Below, piece by piece: positions 32,752-50,470 of a stretch of DNA of 64,000 bases. The stretch is taken from contig JAJYLG010000001.1 of assembly GCA_021787985.1 (NCBI GenBank), positions 50,163 to 114,162 on the forward strand, read 5' to 3'. This stretch comes from Chloroflexota bacterium. Lineage in GTDB: Bacteria; Chloroflexota; Dehalococcoidia; DSGV01. Under the pieces are notes generated by a model. It searched no databases and had not been told where the DNA came from. It saw nothing but the letters and a program-made list of their open reading frames with translations. Positions within the stretch are counted from its first letter, which is position 1; every line of letters begins with the position of its first letter. Position numbers and translations under genes: made by a program.

Positions 32752-32840
32752 GCCCTTCCCGCTCGTACCCGCCGAGAATAGCCACCCGCCCGCGCAGCGT
32801 CAAGCTCCCCACGTCGGACGTCGTTCGCAGCCGCGGCAGG

Positions 32841-32946
32841 CTGGATTCCCGCCCCCCGCCTCCGTGGGGGCAGGCTTCGCGGGAATGGCGAAGAGCGCGG
32901 GAATGATCGACGGCGTGGGAACGACGAAGCGCGGGGATGGCGCGCG
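32841..32946. repeat. Structured intergenic repeat, copy A: ~47-nt imperfect palindrome followed by 3 degenerate ~18-nt direct units beginning GCGGGAAT/GCGGGGAT
   Basis: The core is CTGGATTCCCGCCCCCCGCCTCCGTGGGGGCAGGCTTCGCGGGAATG, with ATTCCCGC...GCGGGAAT arms and an inner CCCCC...GGGGG. It recurs in inverted orientation at 42430-42556 with one mismatch in the core. Confidence 0.6.
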
Positions 32947-40282: not shown

Positions 40283-40549
40283 ATGAGCAAGAAGAAGCGC
40301 GCCAAGACGGCGGCCCCAACGGGATCGCGCGGCTGGAAGGCGTTCTCCGGCGTCTTCACCGTCATCTACGCGGTCGGCGCCGGGGTGAGCGTCGTGGCCG
40401 GGGTGGCCTTCGCTACCTATGGGGACTGGGTCGGGGCGGCGCTGATGCTTGGGAGCGCCGCGGTCCTTGGCCTGGGCGTCGTCCAGCACCTGGGCTATTT
40501 CCGTCGCGGCAGGCCGATCACGCGGCGCGGGAAGGATGGTGAGCGATGA
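40283..40549 (+). CDS. Small two-helix membrane protein (88 aa)
   Basis: Reads MSKKKRAKTAAPTGSRGWKAFSGVFTVIYAVGAGVSVVAGVAFATYGDWVGAALMLGSAAVLGLGVVQHLGYFRRG.... A GGAG RBS lies 7 nt upstream. Its stop overlaps the thrS ATG (ATGA). Confidence 0.45.
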   Translation: MSKKKRAKTAAPTGSRGWKAFSGVFTVIYAVGAGVSVVAGVAFATYGDWVGAALMLGSAAVLGLGVVQHLGYFRRGRPITRRGKDGER

Positions 40550-42309
40550 GCGCGAAGCTGGAGGCGATGTCCAAGGGGGAGCGGCTGCTCCGCATGCGGC
40601 ACTCGGCCTCGCACGTGATGGCGCAGGCGGTCCTCGAGATCTTCCCGATGGCGAAGTGGGCCATCGGCCCTGCCATCGACACCGGCTTCTACTACGACTT
40701 CGACCTCCCGCGCCCGCTCACGCCGGAGGACCTGGAAGATGTCGCGCGCAGGATGCAGGAAACGGTCCGCCGCGGCGACGCGTTCGCGCAGCGCTTCGTC
40801 GACAAGGAGGAAGCGCGCCGCATCTTCGCCGGCCAGCCGTACAAGATCGAGCTGATCGACGGCATCGCCGATGAGCGGGTCTCGCTCTACCAGCAGGGCC
40901 CGTTCCTCGACCTCTGCGAAGGGCCGCACGTCGAGCGGACAGACCAGATCGGCGCGTTCAAGCTGATGAGCGTGGCCGGGGCGTATTGGCGGGGAGACGA
41001 GCGCCGGCCGATGCTGCAACGCATCTACGGCGCTCTGTTCGAGACGCAGCAGGACCTGGACCAGCACCTCCACCAGCTCGAGGAGGCGCGCAGGCGCGAT
41101 CACCGGCGCCTTGGTCGCGAGCTGGGCCTGTTCACCTCGGCGGAGGAGGTCGGCGCGGGGCTGCCGCTGTGGCTGCCCAAGGGCGCCGCCGTCCGGCGCA
41201 TTCTCGAGACCTACATCGTGGAGGAGGAGCGGAGGCGCGGCTACCAGCACGTCTACACGCCCCATCTGGCGAAGGTGGAGCTGTACCAGCGGTCCGGCCA
41301 TTGGGATCACTATCGCGACTCGATGTTCCCGCCCATGGTGCTGGAGAACGAGCAGCTTGTGCTGCGGCCGATGAACTGCCCGCACCACATCACGATCTAC
41401 GGCGCCGGCCAGCACTCCTACCGTGAGCTGCCGGTCCGGCTGGCCGAGCTGGGCACGATGTACCGCTATGAGAAGTCGGGCGAGCTGGCCGGCCTGTCGC
41501 GCGTGCGCGCCATGACGCTCAACGATGCCCACATCTTCTGCCGGCTCGACCAGCTCAAGGACGAGTTCCTGGGGGTGCTCGACCTGATCCGCGAGGCGTA
41601 CCGCGTGCTGGGCTTCCGCGACCACTGGTACCGGCTTTCGCTGCGCGACCCCGCCGACACGGAGAAGTACGTCCAGAACGACGCCATGTGGGACGAGGCC
41701 GAACGCCTGCTGCACGAGGCGATGGACGAGACCGATCTTGAGTACGTCGACGCGCCGGGCGAGGCTTCCTTCTACGGGCCGAAGCTCGACGTGCAGGTGC
41801 GCAACGCCACCGGCCGGGACGAGACCGTCTCGACCATCCAGATCGACTTCCACCTGCCGGAGCGGTTCGGGCTCGAGTACATCGGCGCGGACGGTCAGCC
41901 GCACCGGCCGGTGATCATCCATCGCGGGGTGATCTCGACGATGGAGCGGCTGATGGCTTTTCTGATCGAGACCTACGCCGGCGTCTTCCCGGTGTGGCTG
42001 GCGCCGGTCCAGGCTACCTTCATCCCGATCGCCGACCGGCATCTGGATTACGCGCGGGCGGCGGCACGGCGCTTTATCGAAGCCGGGCTGCGGGTGGAGG
42101 TGGACGACGGCCAAGAGCGGATGAGCGCCAAGATCCGCAACGCCCAGCTCCAGAAAGTGCCGTACATGCTGGTGTGCGGCGACCGGGAGGTCGGCGGGGG
42201 GGCGCTGGCCGTGCGGACGCGCGGTGGGCAGGACCTCGGCCCGATGCCGGCCGAGGCGGTGCTGCGGCGGCTGCTCGAGGAGTCGAAGCCCGGGGCGGAG
42301 TCGACGTGA
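40546..42309 (+). CDS. thrS: Threonine--tRNA ligase (short form without N-terminal TGS domain)
   Basis: Contains ...RMRHSASHVMAQAV... (the editing-domain HxxxH), ...DHRRLGRELGLF... and class II motifs 2 and 3, and at 587 aa is consistent with a short-form ThrRS. Confidence 0.9.
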   Translation: MSAKLEAMSKGERLLRMRHSASHVMAQAVLEIFPMAKWAIGPAIDTGFYYDFDLPRPLTPEDLEDVARRMQETVRRGDAFAQRFVDKEEARRIFAGQPYKIELIDGIADERVSLYQQGPFLDLCEGPHVERTDQIGAFKLMSVAGAYWRGDERRPMLQRIYGALFETQQDLDQHLHQLEEARRRDHRRLGRELGLFTSAEEVGAGLPLWLPKGAAVRRILETYIVEEERRRGYQHVYTPHLAKVELYQRSGHWDHYRDSMFPPMVLENEQLVLRPMNCPHHITIYGAGQHSYRELPVRLAELGTMYRYEKSGELAGLSRVRAMTLNDAHIFCRLDQLKDEFLGVLDLIREAYRVLGFRDHWYRLSLRDPADTEKYVQNDAMWDEAERLLHEAMDETDLEYVDAPGEASFYGPKLDVQVRNATGRDETVSTIQIDFHLPERFGLEYIGADGQPHRPVIIHRGVISTMERLMAFLIETYAGVFPVWLAPVQATFIPIADRHLDYARAAARRFIEAGLRVEVDDGQERMSAKIRNAQLQKVPYMLVCGDREVGGGALAVRTRGGQDLGPMPAEAVLRRLLEESKPGAEST

Positions 42310-42429
42310 AGGCGGCCGTGACACGCGCTTGACGTGACACGACGAGCTTCGGCTGGAGTGCCGGCGCAAGCACACCAACGCGGACGGCGCGCGAACGCTC
42401 GCAGCCACGAGCCCCGGTGCGCCTCGGCG

Positions 42430-42556
42430 GAGCGCGCGCGCCCACGCCCACCGTCACTCCCGCGCGCCCGCCGTCATTCCCGCGAAGCCTGCCCCCGCGG
42501 AGGCGGGGGGCGGGAATCCAGCATCGAGCGGCCTTCTCCCCGCCCTGGATTCCGGC
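42430..42556. repeat. Structured intergenic repeat, copy B (inverted relative to copy A), plus an adjacent GGAATCCAG/CTGGATTCC hairpin
   Basis: Tandem CCCACCGTCACTCCCGCG / CCCGCCGTCATTCCCGCG units are followed by CATTCCCGCGAAGCCTGCCCCCGCGGAGGCGGGGGGCGGGAATCCAG. Confidence 0.6.
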
Positions 42557-42570
42557 TCGCGCTCGCGTCC

Positions 42571-42645
42571 GCTCGCCAGGATGCTGGGCTACGACGAGGC
42601 GGACGTGGACTGGCTGCCGTCCGCCGAGGCGGAGTCCTTGGCGAC
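42571..42645 (+). pseudogene. ~75-nt fragment duplicating an internal segment of the ArsM-like methyltransferase gene (45012-45086)
   Basis: ~90% nucleotide identity. It translates to LARMLGYDEADVDWLPSAEAESLA versus LARMLGYDEADLDRLPSAVAESFA in the full gene. Confidence 0.5.
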
Positions 42646-42945
42646 CGCGGATGCGGCGCCCGGGAGAATGAAAGATTTCTCCCTATGGTCTGTCGGGCTT
42701 GACAGCATTATGAACGTTTCGTATGATTCTCTCTGTCCGAGCGCGTGCCAGACGGCGCTGCTCGGAGGGGACGTCGGATGCGCCCTGCGTCGCGCTGTCG
42801 GCTTTGCGCTACACCGTTCGAAGGTCCAGGCGGTTGGGTCAACCGAGTGTTCCGTCGCGTGACGCGCTTCCGTAAGAATCCCAACATCTGCACAACGTGA
42901 AACGAACTTACGCCCCTGGGTCAGGGGCAGCGGCGCACAGTCAGC

Positions 42946-43485
42946 GTGCTCTTCGCTGACTGCCGCGGCTTTTCCGCCCTCGTCGAGAGCTACCCGGCTG
43001 AAGAAGTGGTCCGGGTGCTCAACCGCTTTTTCCAAGCCGCCACCGACGTATTGCTGGCCCACGATGCCTGTATCGACAAGCTCATGGGAGACCAGCTCAT
43101 GGCCGTGTTCGGTGCCCCGATTGTGCGGCCGGACCACGCAGACCAGGCCGTCGAGGCCGCGGTCGAGATACAGACGGCGATGACGGAGTTGTTTCCCCGC
43201 GGGGGAGAGCCGCGCCTCCGGATCGGCATCGCCATCAACAGCGGCGTGGCTCTGGTGGGCAACCTGGGCTCTCGCGAGTTCAAGGACTTCACGGCCATCG
43301 GCGACGTGGTCAATCTGGGCGCCCACCTTCAGGAGCAGGCAGGACCTGGCGAGGTGCTCGTTACCGAGGCAACCACAGGGATGCTGGCGAAGCAGCCGGA
43401 CCACGCCGCGGGGCGAGTCGTGGCCGTCAAGGGTCGAGCTGAGCCAGTGCGGGTAACGGCCCTCGTGTTTCCGGAAGGCACTTGA
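42946..43485 (+). CDS. Class III adenylate/guanylate cyclase catalytic (CHD) domain protein
   Basis: Contains ...RRTVSVLFADCRGFSALVESY... and ...IGIAINSGVALVGNLGSREFKDFTAIGDVVNLGAHL.... It has a GTG start at 42946 (a CTG further upstream is also possible). No other domains. Confidence 0.6.
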   Translation: MLFADCRGFSALVESYPAEEVVRVLNRFFQAATDVLLAHDACIDKLMGDQLMAVFGAPIVRPDHADQAVEAAVEIQTAMTELFPRGGEPRLRIGIAINSGVALVGNLGSREFKDFTAIGDVVNLGAHLQEQAGPGEVLVTEATTGMLAKQPDHAAGRVVAVKGRAEPVRVTALVFPEGT

Positions 43486-44177
43486 TGGCCCCGGTCACGC
43501 CGCTGCTGCGGGTCCCCCTGTTCGCGGGGCTGCGTCCGCCCGAGCTGGAGGAGATCGCGCGGCGGCTGGTCCCGCGCCTCTATCGGCGGGGCCAGGTGGT
43601 CTTTCACCAGGGAGACCCCGGCGGCTGCCTCTACATCATTGAGCGCGGAAGCGTGAAGGTCTCCCTTCTGTCGGAGACGGGAGAGGAAGCGCTGCTCGCA
43701 ATCATGGGCGCCGGCGACTTCTTCGGCGAGCTGGCGTTGATCGACGGTCAACCCAGATCGGCCACCGTGATCGCCCTGGCAGACACGCGTGCCTGCACGC
43801 TTGACCACCAGAGCTTCCTCGCCTTCTTCGGGGCCTCGCCCGAGGCTGCCGTCGCGGTCTGCGGCGCCTTGGCGGCTCGGCTGCGCCAGATGAACCAGCG
43901 TTTCGCCGAGGTCATCTCCCTTGATCTGCCCGGACGACTGGCCAAGTGCCTGCTCGAGCTGGCGGAGCGGAACGGCGAGGCGGTGGCCGAGGGAGTGGCG
44001 TTCGAGCTGCCGCTCAGCCAGAGGGAGATAGGGGAGCTGGTGGGGGCGTCGCGCCAAAGCGTCAATCGCGCGCTCGCCCAGTGGGAACACCTGGGACTCT
44101 TACGACGACGCCACCGCCGCATCGTCCTCGTCCGTCCGGACGCCCTGCAACGGCGCATCGTGCCACGGCTGTCGTAA
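43485..44177 (+). CDS. Crp/Fnr-family transcriptional regulator
   Basis: Has a cNMP-binding domain (...FFGELALIDGQPRSATVIA...) and a C-terminal HTH (...SQREIGELVGASRQSVNRAL...). The ATG overlaps the upstream stop (TGATG). Confidence 0.8.
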   Translation: MAPVTPLLRVPLFAGLRPPELEEIARRLVPRLYRRGQVVFHQGDPGGCLYIIERGSVKVSLLSETGEEALLAIMGAGDFFGELALIDGQPRSATVIALADTRACTLDHQSFLAFFGASPEAAVAVCGALAARLRQMNQRFAEVISLDLPGRLAKCLLELAERNGEAVAEGVAFELPLSQREIGELVGASRQSVNRALAQWEHLGLLRRRHRRIVLVRPDALQRRIVPRLS

Positions 44178-44280
44178 AGATGACACCTCAAGTGTCTCGC
44201 CGACGCTACTCGCGCGGTCGGGCGGCGAGGCGTAATGAAGACGCTTGATCATAAGCACTCGCGCAACGGGGAGGACAGCG

Positions 44281-44838
44281 ATGACGACAACCATCAACCG
44301 CAACGGCATCAACATCGATCAGCTCATGCAGACGATTGAGGCCATCCGCCAGGACCCGGAGCTGGCGCGGTTCCAGTTCCGGGCACACAGCGAGTGGCAA
44401 GGCGGCGCACGCTCCGCTACCAGGATTCAGGGTTTCTATGGCGCCGGCCAAGAGGACAGCTCGCGTTCGCGGCCGTTCGAGGTCGGTGGGGACGAGCCGC
44501 CGCTGCTCCTGGGCACGGACACGGCTCCCAACGCGGTGGAGACGGTGCTGGCGGCCCTCGCCTCCTGCCTGACAGTGGGCTACGTCTACAACGCCGCGGC
44601 GCAGGGCGTCAAGATCGAGTCGCTGGACTTCGACCTGGAGGGCGATGCGGACCTGCGGGGCTTCCTGGGCCTGTCGGAGACGGTCCGGCCGGGGTTCGGC
44701 GGGATCCGGCTCACCTACCGCGTGAAGGCAGATGCACCTCGCGAGAAGCTCGAAGAGCTATGCGAGTACGTTCAACGCACCTCACCGGTGCTGGATATCA
44801 TCCGCAATCCTGTGCCGGTGTCGATCGAACTGCGGTAG
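44281..44838 (+). CDS. OsmC/Ohr-family protein
   Basis: Contains ...FRAHSEWQGGARSATRIQGFYGAGQ... and ...LAALASCLTVGYVYNAAAQGVKIESL.... A GGGGAGGA RBS precedes it. Confidence 0.75.
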   Translation: MTTTINRNGINIDQLMQTIEAIRQDPELARFQFRAHSEWQGGARSATRIQGFYGAGQEDSSRSRPFEVGGDEPPLLLGTDTAPNAVETVLAALASCLTVGYVYNAAAQGVKIESLDFDLEGDADLRGFLGLSETVRPGFGGIRLTYRVKADAPREKLEELCEYVQRTSPVLDIIRNPVPVSIELR

Positions 44839-44885
44839 GCCGGCGCGGGCCAGGGCAGGACGTCGAGAATCGGGAGGCGAGCGGG

Positions 44886-45857
44886 ATGAGAGGACGACTC
44901 CAGGCGGCGCTGGTCGACCGCGACGCGCTTCGGTCTCAGATCCGGGACAAGTACACGGTGGTGGCCCTCGAACCGCAGACGGGCTTCCATTTCCACACGG
45001 GCCGGCCGCTCGCCAGGATGCTCGGCTACGACGAGGCGGACCTGGACCGGCTGCCGTCCGCCGTGGCGGAGTCCTTCGCCGGCACGGGCAACCCGTTCGC
45101 CTTCGGACGGCTGGCGGAAGGCGAGGTGGTCGTCGACATCGGGTGCGGCGCCGGGTTCGACACCTTGTTGGCGGCTGGGCAGGTCGGGCCACGGGGCCGA
45201 GTCATTGCCGTGGACATGACCCCCGCCATGCTCGACAAGGCCGCCGCGGGCGCCCTGGTCCTCAACCTCCGCAACGTCGAGGTACGCCACGGCGTTGCGG
45301 AGGAGCTGCCGGTGCCCAGTCAATCGGCCGACGTTGTCATCAGCAACGGCGTCATGAATCTGTGCCCGGACAAGCTCGCGGCCATGCGCGAGGTCCGCCG
45401 TGTGCTGCGGCCAGGCGGGCGTTTCCAGATCGGCGACCTGGTCGTGCACCAGGAGGTGCCACAGGACGCGAAGGACGACATCGACCTGTGGTCCGGCTGA
45501 ATCGCCGGGGCTCTGCTGGAAGCAGAGTGGGACTGGGTCCTCAAGCACGCCGGGTTCATCGACGTGCGCTGGGGCCGCCAGGTGGATGTCTTCGCGGGCT
45601 CCAAGCACGAGTCCGACGCTCAGGAATTCGGTGCGCGTGGCGTCACGTTCGCTGGTAGGAGACCCATGCGGGCGGCCGACCCCGCGCCCGTGTGGGCGGA
45701 GCGCGACTCTGATGGCGGCCGCCGGTGCGCGGTCCCGGTCGCGTCGGCTGGCCAGCAGCCAGGCCCTTCGTGTGGTAAGATGCAGTCACGGGGACGAAAG
45801 GGCTCGACAGGGGCCGGCGTGCTCGGGTTGCAGGCCGAGGTGCCATCAACCTCGTAA
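44886..45857 (+). CDS. ArsM-like SAM-dependent methyltransferase with in-frame TGA (45498-45500) at the conserved catalytic Cys position. Predicted selenoprotein; 3' end uncertain.
   Basis: Contains a GCGAG SAM motif (VVDIGCGAGFDTLL) and ...VVISNGVMNLCPDK.... Around the TGA it reads DIDLWSG-TGA-IAGALLEAEWDWVLKHAGFIDVRW..., and typical ArsM sequence continues in frame after it. The nominal stop at 45855-45857 overlaps the tmRNA 5' end by ~68 nt. Confidence 0.55.
45511..45527 (+). other. SECIS-like stem-loop 10 nt downstream of the ArsM-like TGA
   Basis: CUCUGC-UGGAA-GCAGAG: a 6-bp stem with a 5-nt loop. Confidence 0.4.
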
Positions 45858-46143
45858 ATCAGGTGGCAAACAAGTAACTGGCGAACCACAACTCGCCCTC
45901 GCTGCCTAAGAGCTAGGCAGCCGTCCGCCACCGCCTCGTCCCGGTGGGTGGTGAACGGGCGACGCAATGCCGGGATGCCGCGCAGCGCTCGCTGACGACG
46001 CGCGCGAAAGATCAGTCAGCCCGCCCCGAAGGGACGCCGGCGGTAGCGGCCCGAGGGGCTCAAACAAAGTGCCGCAGAAGCCTGTGGATGCCCGGGGCGT
46101 ACGCTCACTGGACCGGGGGTTCAATTCCCCCGCGTCTCCACCA
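45790..46143 (+). ncRNA. ssrA: tmRNA (ssrA), tag peptide GEPQLALAA
   Basis: The 5' GGGGACG pairs with the 3' CGUCUCC-A-CCA. The T-arm is GGGGG-UUCAAUU-CCCCC. The tag ORF GGC GAA CCA CAA CTC GCC CTC GCT GCC TAA runs 45880-45909. It is followed by the hairpin CTGCCTAAGAGCTAGGCAG. Confidence 0.85.
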
Positions 46144-46310
46144 TCTCGATCAGACCGCCCGTCCGTCAGGACGGGCGTTCGTTTCCCGCGCGCCGCCTGC
46201 GCTCCCGCCGCCAGCGGCCGGGCAGCCCGCCTGATCTGCTCCCAAAGCCGTCCCGCGTTCGCCTGACAGGCGGGCGTGCCGCCACGTGACTGCCGGGCTA
46301 TGCTGCCGCC

Positions 46311-47198
46311 ATGGCACGGCGAAGACTCCACGTGCTCTGCGTGCACGGCATCGGCGGCGCACGGCCCGGCTTCTCCGATGGCCTGCGCGTGCGCGTCCGC
46401 CGACTCCTGGCGCGCGACCCGCGCGCTCGCGAGTGGGGGGCGCGACATCCGGATGTGGACTTGCTCGACTGGAGCGAGTACGTCTGGAGCGCGATCGGAG
46501 AGGAGCGAGAGCTTGGGCTGCTCCAAGCGCTCTATCCGGATCTGGCTGAGGACCGCCCGCCGCGACTGCTGCTCTGGGAGCTCATCGAGGGGATCCTGGG
46601 TGTCGGCCGCATGGGTGAGACGCGGCGGTCTCTCATCAAGCAGCTCGGCGACATCCTCGTGTATCTCTCTCCGACCGACGGGGAGCGCATCCGCGCCGGT
46701 CTGGCCAGCGCGATCACCGCGATCCGCGACCGCTGTGACCGCGAGGAGCCGGGTGTGGCGAGTTATGTCACGCTCATCGCCTACTCGCTCGGCGCCGTGA
46801 TCGCGTTCGACGTCGCCTACCGCTTCGCGCAGACCGGTGAGATGCGTGAGCACAGCGAGGGCCTCGAGCTCGGCAGCCTGGTCACGCTCGGCGCGCCGAT
46901 CGCCCTTTTCTCGCTCCTGCGCGGGCCCGCGTACGACCACTACCGTGACCGCCCCGTGCGGACGCGACCGGGCGGCCGCTGGGTCAACTGCCTCGACCCG
47001 CAGGACCTCGTCGCCTGGCCGATCCGGCCCCTTTACCCCGAGCTGCCCGGGCTCGAGGATCGTCCCGTTCGCACCGGCAACCTGGTGTCGGCCCACTCCG
47101 GCTACTGGCATAGCCGGGATGTGGCGCGCATCGTCGCGGGCTGCCTCAGCGCCGATCCGGGTATGAGCGCGGGAGCGGCCCCAGAGAGCGCCACATGA
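46311..47198 (+). CDS. Alpha/beta-hydrolase-like protein (DUF-type, lipase-like AYSLG nucleophile elbow)
   Basis: Reads MARRRLHVLCVHGIGG... then ...VTLIAYSLGAVIAFD.... The longer minus-strand ORF over it is antisense noise. Confidence 0.55.
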   Translation: MARRRLHVLCVHGIGGARPGFSDGLRVRVRRLLARDPRAREWGARHPDVDLLDWSEYVWSAIGEERELGLLQALYPDLAEDRPPRLLLWELIEGILGVGRMGETRRSLIKQLGDILVYLSPTDGERIRAGLASAITAIRDRCDREEPGVASYVTLIAYSLGAVIAFDVAYRFAQTGEMREHSEGLELGSLVTLGAPIALFSLLRGPAYDHYRDRPVRTRPGGRWVNCLDPQDLVAWPIRPLYPELPGLEDRPVRTGNLVSAHSGYWHSRDVARIVAGCLSADPGMSAGAAPESAT

Positions 47199-47234
47199 TA
47201 CCCTCGACCGTGGACTCCGAGGAGGAACGAACGG

Positions 47235-48680
47235 TTGTTCTCAGATACTGAGCCTCACCCACTCGAGCCCATCTTCCATCCGCGTTCCGTGGCCGTGGTC
47301 GGCGTGTCTGAGAAGAGCGGCGGGATGGGTGGCGGCGCGTTCGTCGATTCGCTGCTGGGCATGGGCTTCCCGCGTGAGCGTCTCTATCCGGTGCATCCGC
47401 GTGGCGGGGAGTTCCGCGGACTGACCGTCTATGCCTCGCTGCGCGAGATCCCGGGGCCGGTGGACTATGTCATCTCCAGCATCCCGGCGGCGGCCGTGCC
47501 GATGCTCGTCGATGAGGCCATCGCCAAGGACGTGAAGGCCATCCATTTCTTCACGGCCGGCTTCAGCGAGACCGGCGAGGAGGAACGCGAGGAGCTGGAA
47601 CGTGAGGTGCTGGAGAAGCTGACCGCGGCCGGGATCCGGGTGATCGGTCCGAACTGCATGGGCCTGTACGTTCCGCAATCGGGGCTTTCGTTCATGCGAG
47701 ACCTGCCGACCGAGCCCGGGCACGTGGCGATGGTCAGTCAGAGCGGAGCCAATGCGGGCGGGTTCGTGCGCTACGCCGGAGCGCGTGGCGTCCGCTTCTC
47801 CAAGGTGATCTCATACGGCAACGGTGCTCAGCTCACCGAGTCCGACTTCTTCGAGTACCTGGCGACGGACGCCGACACTCGGGCCGTCTTCGCCTACATC
47901 GAGGGTGTGCGGGACGGGCGGCGGTTCCTGCGTGCCGTACGGGCCTGCGCCGAGCGGGTGCCCGTCGTCATCCTCAAGGGTGGTCGCGGCGAAGCCGGCG
48001 CCCGCGCCGCGCGATCGCATACCGGCAGCCTCGCCGGCTCGTTGCAGGTCTTCGACGCGGCCTGCCGCCAGGCAGGCGCGCTGCGGGTCGAGGAGCTGGA
48101 CGAGTTGGTGGACCTCGCGGTGGCCGTGCAATTCGAAGCGCGGCCTGCCGGGCGGGGGGTCGCCGTGGTCGGTATGGGGGGAGGCACCTCGGTGCTCGCG
48201 GCCGACGAGGTCGACGCAGCCGGCCTCGATCTGCCCGTCATGCCGCAGGAGATCCAGGACGAGCTCCATACCTTCACCCCCCTCGCGGGGACATCCGTGC
48301 GCAACCCGATCGACAGCACGGCGCTGTTCCAAGCCGACGGTTTCCTGCGCACCTTCGAGCTGGCTGCTCGGCCCGAATCGGTGCACACGATCCTCTTCCA
48401 CGTCTCCTTCGGATGGGGACCGGCGATCCGGCCGGAAGACTATGTCCAGCGGATCGCGGACACCGCCGCCAATCTCCGCGACGCGCGCTCACGCGTCGGC
48501 GGCAAGCCGATTCTGGTGGCGGTCGACTCCCCAGTTACGGCCGAGGGCGCGGCGCACACCATCGATGCCATCCAGCGCGTCTCGGCCGACGGGTTCCCTA
48601 CCTTTGTCGGCATTCCGCGGGCGGCCCGCACGATCGCCGAGCTGGCGCGCCTCCAGGCGCTGCGTCGGCGCCAGGACTAG
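47235..48680 (+). CDS. Acetate--CoA ligase (ADP-forming) family protein, alpha-type CoA-binding plus ligase-CoA domains
   Basis: Contains ...RSVAVVGVSEKSGGMGG... then ...ITAGFSETGEEEREELEREVLEKLTAAGIRVIGPNCMGLY.... A TTG start at 47235 lies 9 nt after a GGAGGA RBS. Confidence 0.7.
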   Translation: MFSDTEPHPLEPIFHPRSVAVVGVSEKSGGMGGGAFVDSLLGMGFPRERLYPVHPRGGEFRGLTVYASLREIPGPVDYVISSIPAAAVPMLVDEAIAKDVKAIHFFTAGFSETGEEEREELEREVLEKLTAAGIRVIGPNCMGLYVPQSGLSFMRDLPTEPGHVAMVSQSGANAGGFVRYAGARGVRFSKVISYGNGAQLTESDFFEYLATDADTRAVFAYIEGVRDGRRFLRAVRACAERVPVVILKGGRGEAGARAARSHTGSLAGSLQVFDAACRQAGALRVEELDELVDLAVAVQFEARPAGRGVAVVGMGGGTSVLAADEVDAAGLDLPVMPQEIQDELHTFTPLAGTSVRNPIDSTALFQADGFLRTFELAARPESVHTILFHVSFGWGPAIRPEDYVQRIADTAANLRDARSRVGGKPILVAVDSPVTAEGAAHTIDAIQRVSADGFPTFVGIPRAARTIAELARLQALRRRQD

Positions 48681-50470
48681 CGGCGGCGGAACTCACGCTC
48701 CAGCGCGGTCGCCGGCACATGGACGACGGTCGGTCGCCCGTGCGGGCAGGTGCGCGGCTGCCGGCACGACTCCAGCGCCAGCACGATCTCGCGCATCTCG
48801 TCAAGCGAGAGCGACATGCCCGCCCGCACTGATGCGTGACAGGCGGCGGTCATCAGCGAGCGGTCGCGCCTGCGTGGCAGGTCGGGCTCCTCGGCCGCCA
48901 GCGCCCCCAGCTCGCTGAGGAGCTGCGACAGGTCTCGCTTGACCAGCGGCGCGGGCACCGCCCGCACCAACCAGGCGCCGCCGTCGAGGGGGTCGGCCTG
49001 TACGCCGACAGTCTCCAGCACACGCCTATCGGCAACCAGCGCGGCCGACGCGCCGGGCGAGAGCTGGCAAACCTGCGGCACCAGTAACGGCTGCAGATCC
49101 TCTCCCTCCGGCCTGGCGCAGAAGCGCTCGTACAGCACCCGCTCGTGGGCGGCGTGCTGGTCGATGAGGAACATCCCTTCCGGGCCCTCGGCGACGATGT
49201 AGGTGGCGCCAACCTGGCCGACGATGCGCAGCGGCGGCAGGGCCGGACCGGCGACTGGCGCGTCGCCGGCGCCGTTGGCGGACCGTGCCGGCGGCGGCCC
49301 CGCGGAGGCGGGGGGCGCGGCTGCCTCCCCCGGTGACCGGGCGTCCGCCGGAAGCTGGGGGACCGCCGGCTCTTCGAGCGGCAGTCGCGGCGCCCACGGA
49401 GGAGAAACGAGCCGCAGCGGCGCCGCATCGTCGCCCTCGAAGGTCTGCGCTCCGCCCGAGAGAAGGGCGCCGGCCGCCGGCACCGGGGCGGATCTGCTGA
49501 TGGCGGAGTGCGCTGCCGCCGTCAGGGCGGACAGCACGACGCGCTCGTCGCGGAAGCGCACGTCCGTCTTCGCGGGGTGCACGTTGACGTCCACTTCCTC
49601 GGGTGCGAGGCGCACGTCGAGCACGGCCAGCGGGTGCTGCCCCGTGGGTAGCCCGTCCTGGTATGCGCGCTCGATCGCGAAGAGTGGCGCGCGGCTGCTG
49701 ACCCAGCGGCCGTTGACAAAGACGGTCATGGCGCCGCGGGAGCCGCGCCAGGTGCCCGGCGGCGACACCAGCCCGGTCACGCGCACGCCGGGGGCTTCGA
49801 ACTCCACCGGCAGCAGGTGGTCGGCGGCCGAGCCGTAGAGCGCGCGACAGACGTCGCGCAGCTCGCCGCTGCCGTCCGTGCGCAACAGCAGGCGGCCATC
49901 GGACGTCAGCGTGAAGCGCACGTCCGGGCGGGACAGCGCCAGCCGGGTGACCACGCCCGCGACCGCGGCCGCCTCGGCCCCGGCCGAGCGCAGGAACTTG
50001 CGGCGCGCCGGCTGCGCGTGGAAGAGGCGCGTCATTCCGATATCGGTGCCGTGTGGCTTGCCCTCGCGCCCTCGGCCGAGCAGCTCGCCGCCAGCTATCC
50101 GGATCCACGCCGCTGCGAGCTGCTCGGCTGGCCGGGAGGAGCAGCGCACCTCGGCGGCGGCGGCGATGGCGGCGAGCGCCTCGCCGCGGAAGCCGAGCGT
50201 GGCGACGCGCGCCAGGTCCTCGATCGTGGATAATTTGCTGGTCGCGTGGCGGGCGAACGCGAGCTCCAGCTCGCCCTCGGGGATGCCGCAGCCGTCATCG
50301 ACGACGCGCAATCGTTCCGCACCGCCGCGCTGCATCTCGACGGTGACGCGCCGAGCCCCCGCGTCGAGCGAGTTCTCGACGAGCTCTTTCGCCACCGAAG
50401 CAGGCCGCTCGACGACTTCCCCGGCGGCGATCTGGCGGGAGACCTCGGGCGGCAGGCGCTGAATGGGCAT
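48677..50470 (-). CDS. mutL: DNA mismatch repair protein MutL
   Basis: From ATG 50468-50470 it reads MPIQRLPPEVSRQIAAGEVVERPASVAKELVENSLDAG..., the GHKL ATPase N-terminus. The stop overlaps the convergent upstream gene by 4 nt. Confidence 0.9.
   Translation of the reverse strand: MPIQRLPPEVSRQIAAGEVVERPASVAKELVENSLDAGARRVTVEMQRGGAERLRVVDDGCGIPEGELELAFARHATSKLSTIEDLARVATLGFRGEALAAIAAAAEVRCSSRPAEQLAAAWIRIAGGELLGRGREGKPHGTDIGMTRLFHAQPARRKFLRSAGAEAAAVAGVVTRLALSRPDVRFTLTSDGRLLLRTDGSGELRDVCRALYGSAADHLLPVEFEAPGVRVTGLVSPPGTWRGSRGAMTVFVNGRWVSSRAPLFAIERAYQDGLPTGQHPLAVLDVRLAPEEVDVNVHPAKTDVRFRDERVVLSALTAAAHSAISRSAPVPAAGALLSGGAQTFEGDDAAPLRLVSPPWAPRLPLEEPAVPQLPADARSPGEAAAPPASAGPPPARSANGAGDAPVAGPALPPLRIVGQVGATYIVAEGPEGMFLIDQHAAHERVLYERFCARPEGEDLQPLLVPQVCQLSPGASAALVADRRVLETVGVQADPLDGGAWLVRAVPAPLVKRDLSQLLSELGALAAEEPDLPRRRDRSLMTAACHASVRAGMSLSLDEMREIVLALESCRQPRTCPHGRPTVVHVPATALEREFRRR

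Follow-up and report, generated by a model that had tools for sequence, protein, structure and literature searches.

Bacterial genomes commonly contain gene remnants left by duplication and deletion. In Salmonella and E. coli, tandem duplications that have REP sequences (REP/BIME) at their join point are known. Template switching of the MMBIR/FoSTeS type, which is associated with templated or filler insertions, is documented mainly in eukaryotes. With respect to the genes concerned here, an ArsM selenoprotein ('arsenite methyltransferase, UxxG') has been listed in a 2026 review (PMC13188914). The locus described in this work invites comparison with each of these systems. Within a 64-kb stretch of DNA (the window, meaning the whole 64,000 nucleotides analysed), a 77-nt segment of an ArsM-family methyltransferase gene is present a second time, in the spacer between the threonyl-tRNA synthetase gene (thrS) and the operon to which the methyltransferase belongs. 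The second copy, which lies in a neutral spacer, is probably a relic without function, specific to this lineage, of a local duplication that took in the 5' part of the methyltransferase gene. Because such remnants are ordinary, the fragment itself is of small importance; its surroundings, which comprise a selenoprotein methyltransferase and an apparent selenocysteine (Sec)-containing cyclase, matter more. The features referred to below are as follows (position in the window, strand, description).

32830–32899, minus: the other full-length REP-like repeat, close to tRNA-Lys
40546–42309, plus: thrS, which bounds the repeat- and fragment-bearing spacer on its upstream side
42463–42532, plus: palindromic REP-like repeat, 70 nt, inverted copy of 32830–32899 (87%)
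42545–42557, minus: partial extra half-site of the REP-like repeat (AGCCGGAATCCAG), ending 8 nt before the fragment
42566–42642, plus: orphan 77-nt copy of methyltransferase codons 40–65 (the fragment)
42662–42683, no strand: perfect 7-bp inverted repeat GGGAGAA-N8-TTCTCCC, read from the sequence; candidate operator, putatively autoregulatory
42699–42727, plus: sigma-70-like promoter TTGACA-17-TATGAT, 11/12, a consensus match only
42778–43485, plus: class III nucleotidyl cyclase with an N-terminal CxxC...CxxU domain, TGA at 42898–42900 apparently read as selenocysteine
43485–44177, plus: Crp/Fnr-family regulator (cNMP-binding domain and HTH), its start overlapping the cyclase stop (TGATG)
44281–44838, plus: OsmC-like protein
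44886–45857, plus: ArsM-family SAM methyltransferase of selenoprotein type, TGA at 45498–45500, SECIS-like hairpin at about 45510–45528
45003–45079, plus: parent segment within the methyltransferase gene, R40 to A65 (RPLARMLGYDEADLDRLPSAVAESFA)
45790–46143, plus: tmRNA gene, downstream neighbour

A second copy of codons 40–65 in the thrS spacer

The fragment aligns with the parent segment on the same strand and without gaps, with 71 of the 77 positions identical (92%) and a start-to-start spacing of 2437 nt. A sequence-only reading of the window had earlier described a duplicate of about 90% identity between 42571–42645 and 45012–45086, some 2.4 kb apart. The duplicate is real and the distance is right, but those coordinates are 4–9 nt off and imply a register of 2441 instead of 2437 nt. 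The same reading had named a short low-complexity match as what would undo it; the match is ungapped throughout its 77 nt, and the segment is ordinary coding-type sequence whose complexity is not low. The local alignment score of the duplicate is 124, compared with a maximum of 33 in 200 shuffles of the 42300–43000 region and a score of 29 for the reverse complement. Likewise, a 36-mer of the segment, with up to three mismatches allowed, has exactly two occurrences across the 64-kb window and none in 100 dinucleotide-preserving shuffles. The longest exact run common to both copies is 18 nt. The homology ends sharply and abruptly on both sides, and comparison of the flanks with the whole methyltransferase gene, by gapped and ungapped alignment, gives no convincing extension in either direction. 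On the right, the best collinear match pairs 42643–42663 with 45135–45155 (18/21) after a 55-nt gap, a match that lacks significance (p-values of 0.04 ungapped and 0.27 gapped).

The presence of the fragment is supported by more than one assembly. Records of the methyltransferase protein come from two sources, a 126.9-kb NCBI/ENA contig and the independent Logan assembly of run SRR13170411, the two assemblies having been built from one read set. A Logan contig (L001) corresponds to 42547–50203 of the window with 100% identity, and carries both the fragment and its right-hand junction. Its break at 42547 falls within the repeat cluster, as a multi-copy element would lead one to expect, so that the left junction is covered by 19 nt only.

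The fragment sits in a GC-rich spacer that extends from thrS to the operon promoter. Its position beside the inverted copy of an intergenic repeat and ahead of a cyclase-domain gene is as the sequence-only reading had it. The repeat is an imperfect, REP-like palindrome that is intergenic and occurs in both orientations, with two full copies and one half-site in the window, and its hairpin is seen in the predicted fold; the cluster upstream of the fragment lies 8–33 nt from the fragment's left end. Short sub-repeats in direct orientation, of the form GTCA(C/T)TCCCGCG, come before the REP-like repeat (..CATTCCCGCGAAGCCTGCCCCCRCGGAGGCGGGGGGCGGGAATCCAGC..; 42440–42557 and 32830–32930). The core of the REP-like repeat is absent from every relative locus that was retrieved. 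On the other side, the right end of the fragment is 19 nt ahead of the 42662–42683 palindrome and 57 nt ahead of the −35 hexamer of the predicted promoter, which is the only promoter-like site of the region (one found, 0.0 expected). Transcription is predicted to start near 42734; the fragment thus lies 92–168 nt upstream of this start, and the centre of the palindrome about 61.5 nt upstream of it. Class I activator sites of the Crp type have this offset of about 61.5 nt, and one of the operon's own genes codes for a Crp-family protein.

The parent methyltransferase and its operon

The sequence-only reading took the parent gene to be arsM. That the fragment is a genuine copy from an ArsM-family gene holds: the encoded protein has a class I SAM-methyltransferase domain of the ArsM/UbiE type (Methyltransf_31 at 6e-29), and its best PDB matches are arsenite methyltransferases (5evj at 6e-26, and 4fr0). 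The label 'ArsM' itself calls for a reservation. With selenocysteine scored as cysteine, the protein reaches 222.2 bits against the NCBIfam model NF008823, below the cutoff of 263. In addition, when the As(III)-binding cysteines (in GCGNP, SNCV and the C-terminal C(I/L)(A/G)GA) are aligned to 5evj/5eg5, the corresponding motifs are GTGNP (Thr), SNGV (Gly) and U-IAGA, so that one of the three cysteine positions is kept, namely the third, as a selenocysteine. Judged by these sequence features, the parent methyltransferase is not a canonical ArsM, and since two of the three As(III)-binding cysteines are missing and the NF008823 score is below cutoff, its substrate may be something other than arsenite.

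Several observations bear on how the TGA at 45498–45500 is read. It aligns with the conserved cysteine of the homologues' ..WS(G/N)C-IAGAL.. (WSG-U-IAG in the window). More than 20 database homologues, 76–78% identical, have been called as proteins of exactly 204 aa, i.e. with a stop at the same TGA, and in two relative loci (L002 and L130) the conservation of the methyltransferase runs on through it. The hairpin that follows, GCUCUGC-UGGAA-GCAGAG(U/C), is invariant (GCUCUGCUGGAAGCAGAG), begins 12–14 nt past the TGA and folds at the same place in all three loci (3/3). The TGA at a cysteine position, the conservation past it and the invariant hairpin together mark the gene as encoding a selenoprotein of the known UxxG type. 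No tRNA-Sec is found among the three tRNA/tmRNA genes of the 64-kb window. The 3' end of the gene is unusual as well. The frame has no stop after ..GVTFAGRRP, where homologues end (..GVTFAG(V/A)KPA and a stop), and runs for 64 extra codons to a TAA at 45855–45857, 66 nt into the tmRNA gene. This extension (45666–45857) has a non-coding-like composition, with a GC2 of 0.68, and the missing stop could be either a recent stop-codon loss or a sequence error.

The methyltransferase is the last of four co-directional operon genes, the others coding for the cyclase, the Crp-family regulator and the OsmC-like protein; the latter has a weak match to the 'OsmC-related (seleno)protein' model NF041052. 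The first gene deserves attention. As annotated (42946–43485, GTG start), the cyclase lacks a proper start: at the place of MPLGQGQR.. in its closest homologue, the window reads ACG-PLGQGQR... Upstream and in frame with it lies a conserved small ORF that ends ..FRKNPNIC-T-T-TGA. The arrangement C(K/R)LC..PF......KNPN(I/L/V)Cxx-TGA-three codons-(M/T)P(L/V)GxG is found in frame in nine loci (the window, L047, L048, L129, L130, L131, L135, L045 and L046). In two of these nine, the window (42910–42912) and L048 (3966–3968, approximate), ACG (Thr) replaces ATG (Met), leaving no start codon for the cyclase domain itself, in keeping with a TGA that has to be read through. A SECIS-like hairpin, GCCCCUG-GGU-CAGGGGC (42912–42928 in the window), starts 12–14 nt after the TGA and folds at the same place in six of seven loci, and pairing-preserving stem changes, read by eye, are present in L130 (G:C to C:G) and L129. 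Finally, homologues with a single ORF have cysteine at the TGA position: P0127 and P0129 (..KNPNICNSCNISMPLG..), P0133, P0142, P0128, P0137 and P0139. On the classical signature of a conserved in-frame TGA, a SECIS-like hairpin and cysteine homologues, a selenoprotein appears to be encoded here, namely a class III nucleotidyl cyclase whose N-domain (CxxC...CxxU) resembles a zinc ribbon.

Annotation splits this gene into a 'hypothetical' ORF of 40–50 aa, 43–44 aa in the loci compared, and a start-less cyclase. The possibility that the cyclase was truncated by a rearrangement breakpoint was considered and ruled out: short proteins are the norm in this family, and translation that continues from the upstream domain accounts for the missing start. 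A model for a Sec-cyclase is absent from NCBIfam release 20, as is the word 'cyclase' from two reviews of prokaryotic selenoproteomes, one of them PMC13188914. An exhaustive search with the 40-aa N-domain of the cyclase returned four matches only, and a metagenome scan with a cyclase alignment, which contains generic cyclase motifs, returned distant cyclases only, none of them with the N-domain/TGA signature. The Sec-cyclase gene appears to be previously unlisted and more interesting than the fragment.

The gene order is retained elsewhere. Linkage of cyclase, crp and osmC is seen in L045, L048 and L135–138; L130 has the order cyclase-Crp-79aa-methyltransferase (204 aa), and a JGI 3300056388 contig has cyclase-Crp-OsmC-...-methyltransferase (202 aa). 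The upstream neighbour of the operon is a different one in each relative locus. Since linkage is kept in distant relatives and the upstream neighbour changes each time, the operon is, on comparative grounds, ancestral, and the spacer on the thrS side is the variable part. The recurrence of a Sec-cyclase/Crp/OsmC/Sec-methyltransferase cluster across distant Dehalococcoidia-like lineages suggests a redox or metalloid stress module under cyclic-nucleotide control.

The collections searched contain no close relatives. The best ThrRS among GTDB representative genomes is 65% identical (an uncultured Dehalococcoidia), the best methyltransferase homologues are 71–78% identical, an exact-protein look-up of the OsmC-like protein gave no match, and a look-up of the methyltransferase returned the same organism only. 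In a ThrRS scan of the genome collection, thrS was linked to the operon in no retrieved relative, and L002, a 77% relative, is not syntenic. With the nearest relatives this distant and thrS unlinked to the operon, synteny comparison could not settle the ancestral state. The one distant relative with the same operon that was compared for this purpose, L130, has no comparable 77-nt duplicate. In L002 (ENA ERZ25039478 contig_16695, 90 kb), many genes are called as adjacent short pieces belonging to a single family, e.g. CoA_transf_3 twice and DNA_pol_A twice. This suggests a frameshift-rich long-read assembly, and gene lengths in L002 therefore need caution.

Origin of the duplicate

The fragment is 92% identical to the methyltransferase gene of its own genome, compared with about 75% to the equivalent segment of L002, and the window holds no other ArsM-like copy; its origin is therefore local. 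Six positions differ between fragment and parent, two of the differences being synonymous and four non-synonymous in the parent frame, too few sites to measure selection. At three of the six, the fragment holds the state found in L002 ('ADVDWLP', as in the closest homologues P0099 and P0102), and it is the live gene that has changed. Changes specific to the fragment include F64L, at a phenylalanine that is nearly invariant in the family, and V60E. Any 'decay' of the fragment accordingly rests on two or three substitutions.

A past rearrangement, as had been suggested from the sequence, is the most economical explanation for these data, and the history that best fits the geometry has two steps. 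In the first, a unit of 2437 bp (42643–45079), comprising the regulatory region, the cyclase gene, crp, osmC and the 5'-terminal 194 nt of the methyltransferase gene, would have been duplicated in tandem, with the join point at what is now the right end of the fragment. In the second, the redundant upstream copy would have been deleted except for its last 77 nt, the left end of the deletion remnant lying at the REP-like cluster. The direct orientation, the spacing of 2437 nt and a right end that abuts the start of the operon regulatory region are all as a tandem-duplication join would give. We infer the order and type of these events from a model that was built to fit the geometry. No two-copy operon intermediate is seen in the window, where only the 77 nt remain, and no microhomology is demonstrable at the junctions.

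The sequence-only reading had also offered a repeat-mediated event as an option. The sole basis for this is the adjacency of the fragment to the REP-like cluster. Recombination between two REP copies cannot explain the duplicate, because at its other end the duplicated unit stops within a gene that has no repeat; the role of the REP-like element in the event is circumstantial.

Among the alternatives to a tandem duplication followed by deletion, the one that fares best dispenses with a second operon copy altogether. Here, during replication or break repair, a nascent strand would have left its template near the REP-like hairpins, copied 77 nt of the methyltransferase gene some 2.4 kb downstream and returned, giving a filler or microhomology-mediated insertion. 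A single event then suffices. In favour are the short length of the copy, its sharp ends on both sides and its location, 8 nt away from a cluster of hairpin-forming repeats at which replication could stall; in addition, the motif GCTCGC is present in two copies immediately to the left of the junction and in one copy where the copied segment starts. This microhomology between donor and acceptor is, however, off the junction itself, and the placement of the right end exactly upstream of the regulatory region is better explained by a duplication join. To our knowledge, templated patches of 77 nt are poorly documented in bacteria, which also counts against a one-step origin, and we consider it unlikely on balance, if worth keeping in mind.

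An older second gene of the ArsM family, situated right after thrS, interrupted when the REP-like cluster inserted and cut short on its 3' side, is a less probable source and one to which we give little credence. It is essentially the 'truncated copy' of the sequence-only reading, which had proposed a relocated or truncated arsM copy. What speaks for it is the left flank, where 42325–42375, just past the thrS stop, is collinear with 44907–44956 (methyltransferase codons 8–24) at about 70% identity, with p-values of 0.002–0.008 by shuffling and 0.016 against real window sequence; moreover, the extra 144 nt between the matching blocks is about the size of the repeat cluster. This block could be due to chance or could be the trace of an older copy. 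Its p-value is marginal, and identities of 70% upstream and 92% in the fragment are incompatible with a single age of duplication. The start codon implied for such a gene would overlap the thrS stop, and REP-type insertions normally occur without deletion of 46 nt of target. There is also no match downstream of codon 65, since tblastn extension from the fragment beyond that codon yields noise only, and the 64-kb window has no further ArsM-like sequence elsewhere. A whole arsM copy that was relocated or truncated at this site is therefore not supported.

The remaining biological alternative is that the fragment does something, either as a protein-binding site or RNA segment, in cis or in trans, that is shared by the operon promoter region and the methyltransferase gene, or as the start of a small protein. 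Its location just upstream of the predicted start of the very operon that holds the parent gene is suggestive in this respect, as are an 8-bp inverted repeat within it (GGCGGACG..CGTCCGCC) and the fact that a gene caller placed an ORF across it on the Logan contig. That ORF (42581–42862) begins at an ATG in the fragment. The fragment retains the GC3 of its parent (0.96); the GC3 of the ORF is 0.96–1.0 within the fragment and 0.61 in the next 100 nt, compared with 0.80–0.93 in real genes; the ORF contains the promoter, overlaps the cyclase N-domain in a different frame and has no Pfam match. A small protein from this ORF is thus ruled out by composition, overlap and lack of a family match, and the call is a warning for annotation, the gene caller having built a spurious ORF on a gene fragment. 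The fragment as such has no start or stop of its own, its protein homology being confined to codons 40–65. It matches no Rfam family, either at the gathering threshold or at E-values up to 1; the fold of 42430–42700 is unremarkable relative to shuffles (z = −1.08), and the region has no minus-strand promoter-like site. The copy being direct, an RNA from it would be sense, not antisense, to the methyltransferase gene. Together with the missing counterpart in L130, these results make a functional element very improbable, and the fragment most likely has no function, as judged from the lack of any sign of one. We attach just as little weight to two broader ideas, namely that the copy has been kept as a shared binding site or RNA segment coupling control of the two-selenoprotein operon to the methyltransferase gene, or that it marks a still-active cycle of operon-scale duplication and loss.

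An assembly artefact, i.e. a chimeric join, for which the metagenomic source and the break of the Logan contig with its 19-nt coverage of the left junction could be cited, is unlikely to the point of being negligible, because two assemblers agree through the fragment and the right-hand junction and because the copies, which differ at six sites, share at most 18 consecutive identical bases, shorter than assembly k-mers, so that k-mer graphs would not confuse them.

Comparison with known systems

How does this locus relate to the systems outlined at the start? With the ArsM selenoprotein family (NF008823 type, PMC13188914), the parent gene shares the UxxG motif, the TGA at a conserved cysteine and the hairpin; it differs in its sub-cutoff NF008823 score and in the absence of two of the three As(III)-binding cysteines. 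The fragment, which spans codons 40–65, includes neither the Sec codon nor the hairpin. The likeness to templated or filler insertions of the MMBIR/FoSTeS type consists of a short patch from a nearby locus, with sharp ends, at a hairpin-rich acceptor, and the difference is that no junctional microhomology can be demonstrated. As in REP/BIME-associated rearrangements, a palindromic, multi-copy intergenic repeat is found 8–33 nt from one end of the duplicate; unlike in those, the other end of the unit is inside a gene without a repeat, and only two full copies of the element are visible in the window.

The closest parallel to a tandem duplication followed by deletion is provided by the gene remnants that such events leave in bacterial chromosomes, which are likewise short, direct, intergenic copies near their parent, without start or stop. 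The fragment would then be a small fossil of a past partial duplication of the operon region, retaining a few of the gene's earlier character states, and it is a marker that could serve to date or trace rearrangements if sister genomes appear. What sets it apart from other gene remnants is that only 77 nt survive, and that this relic keeps the outgroup state at half of the sites at which it differs from its parent.
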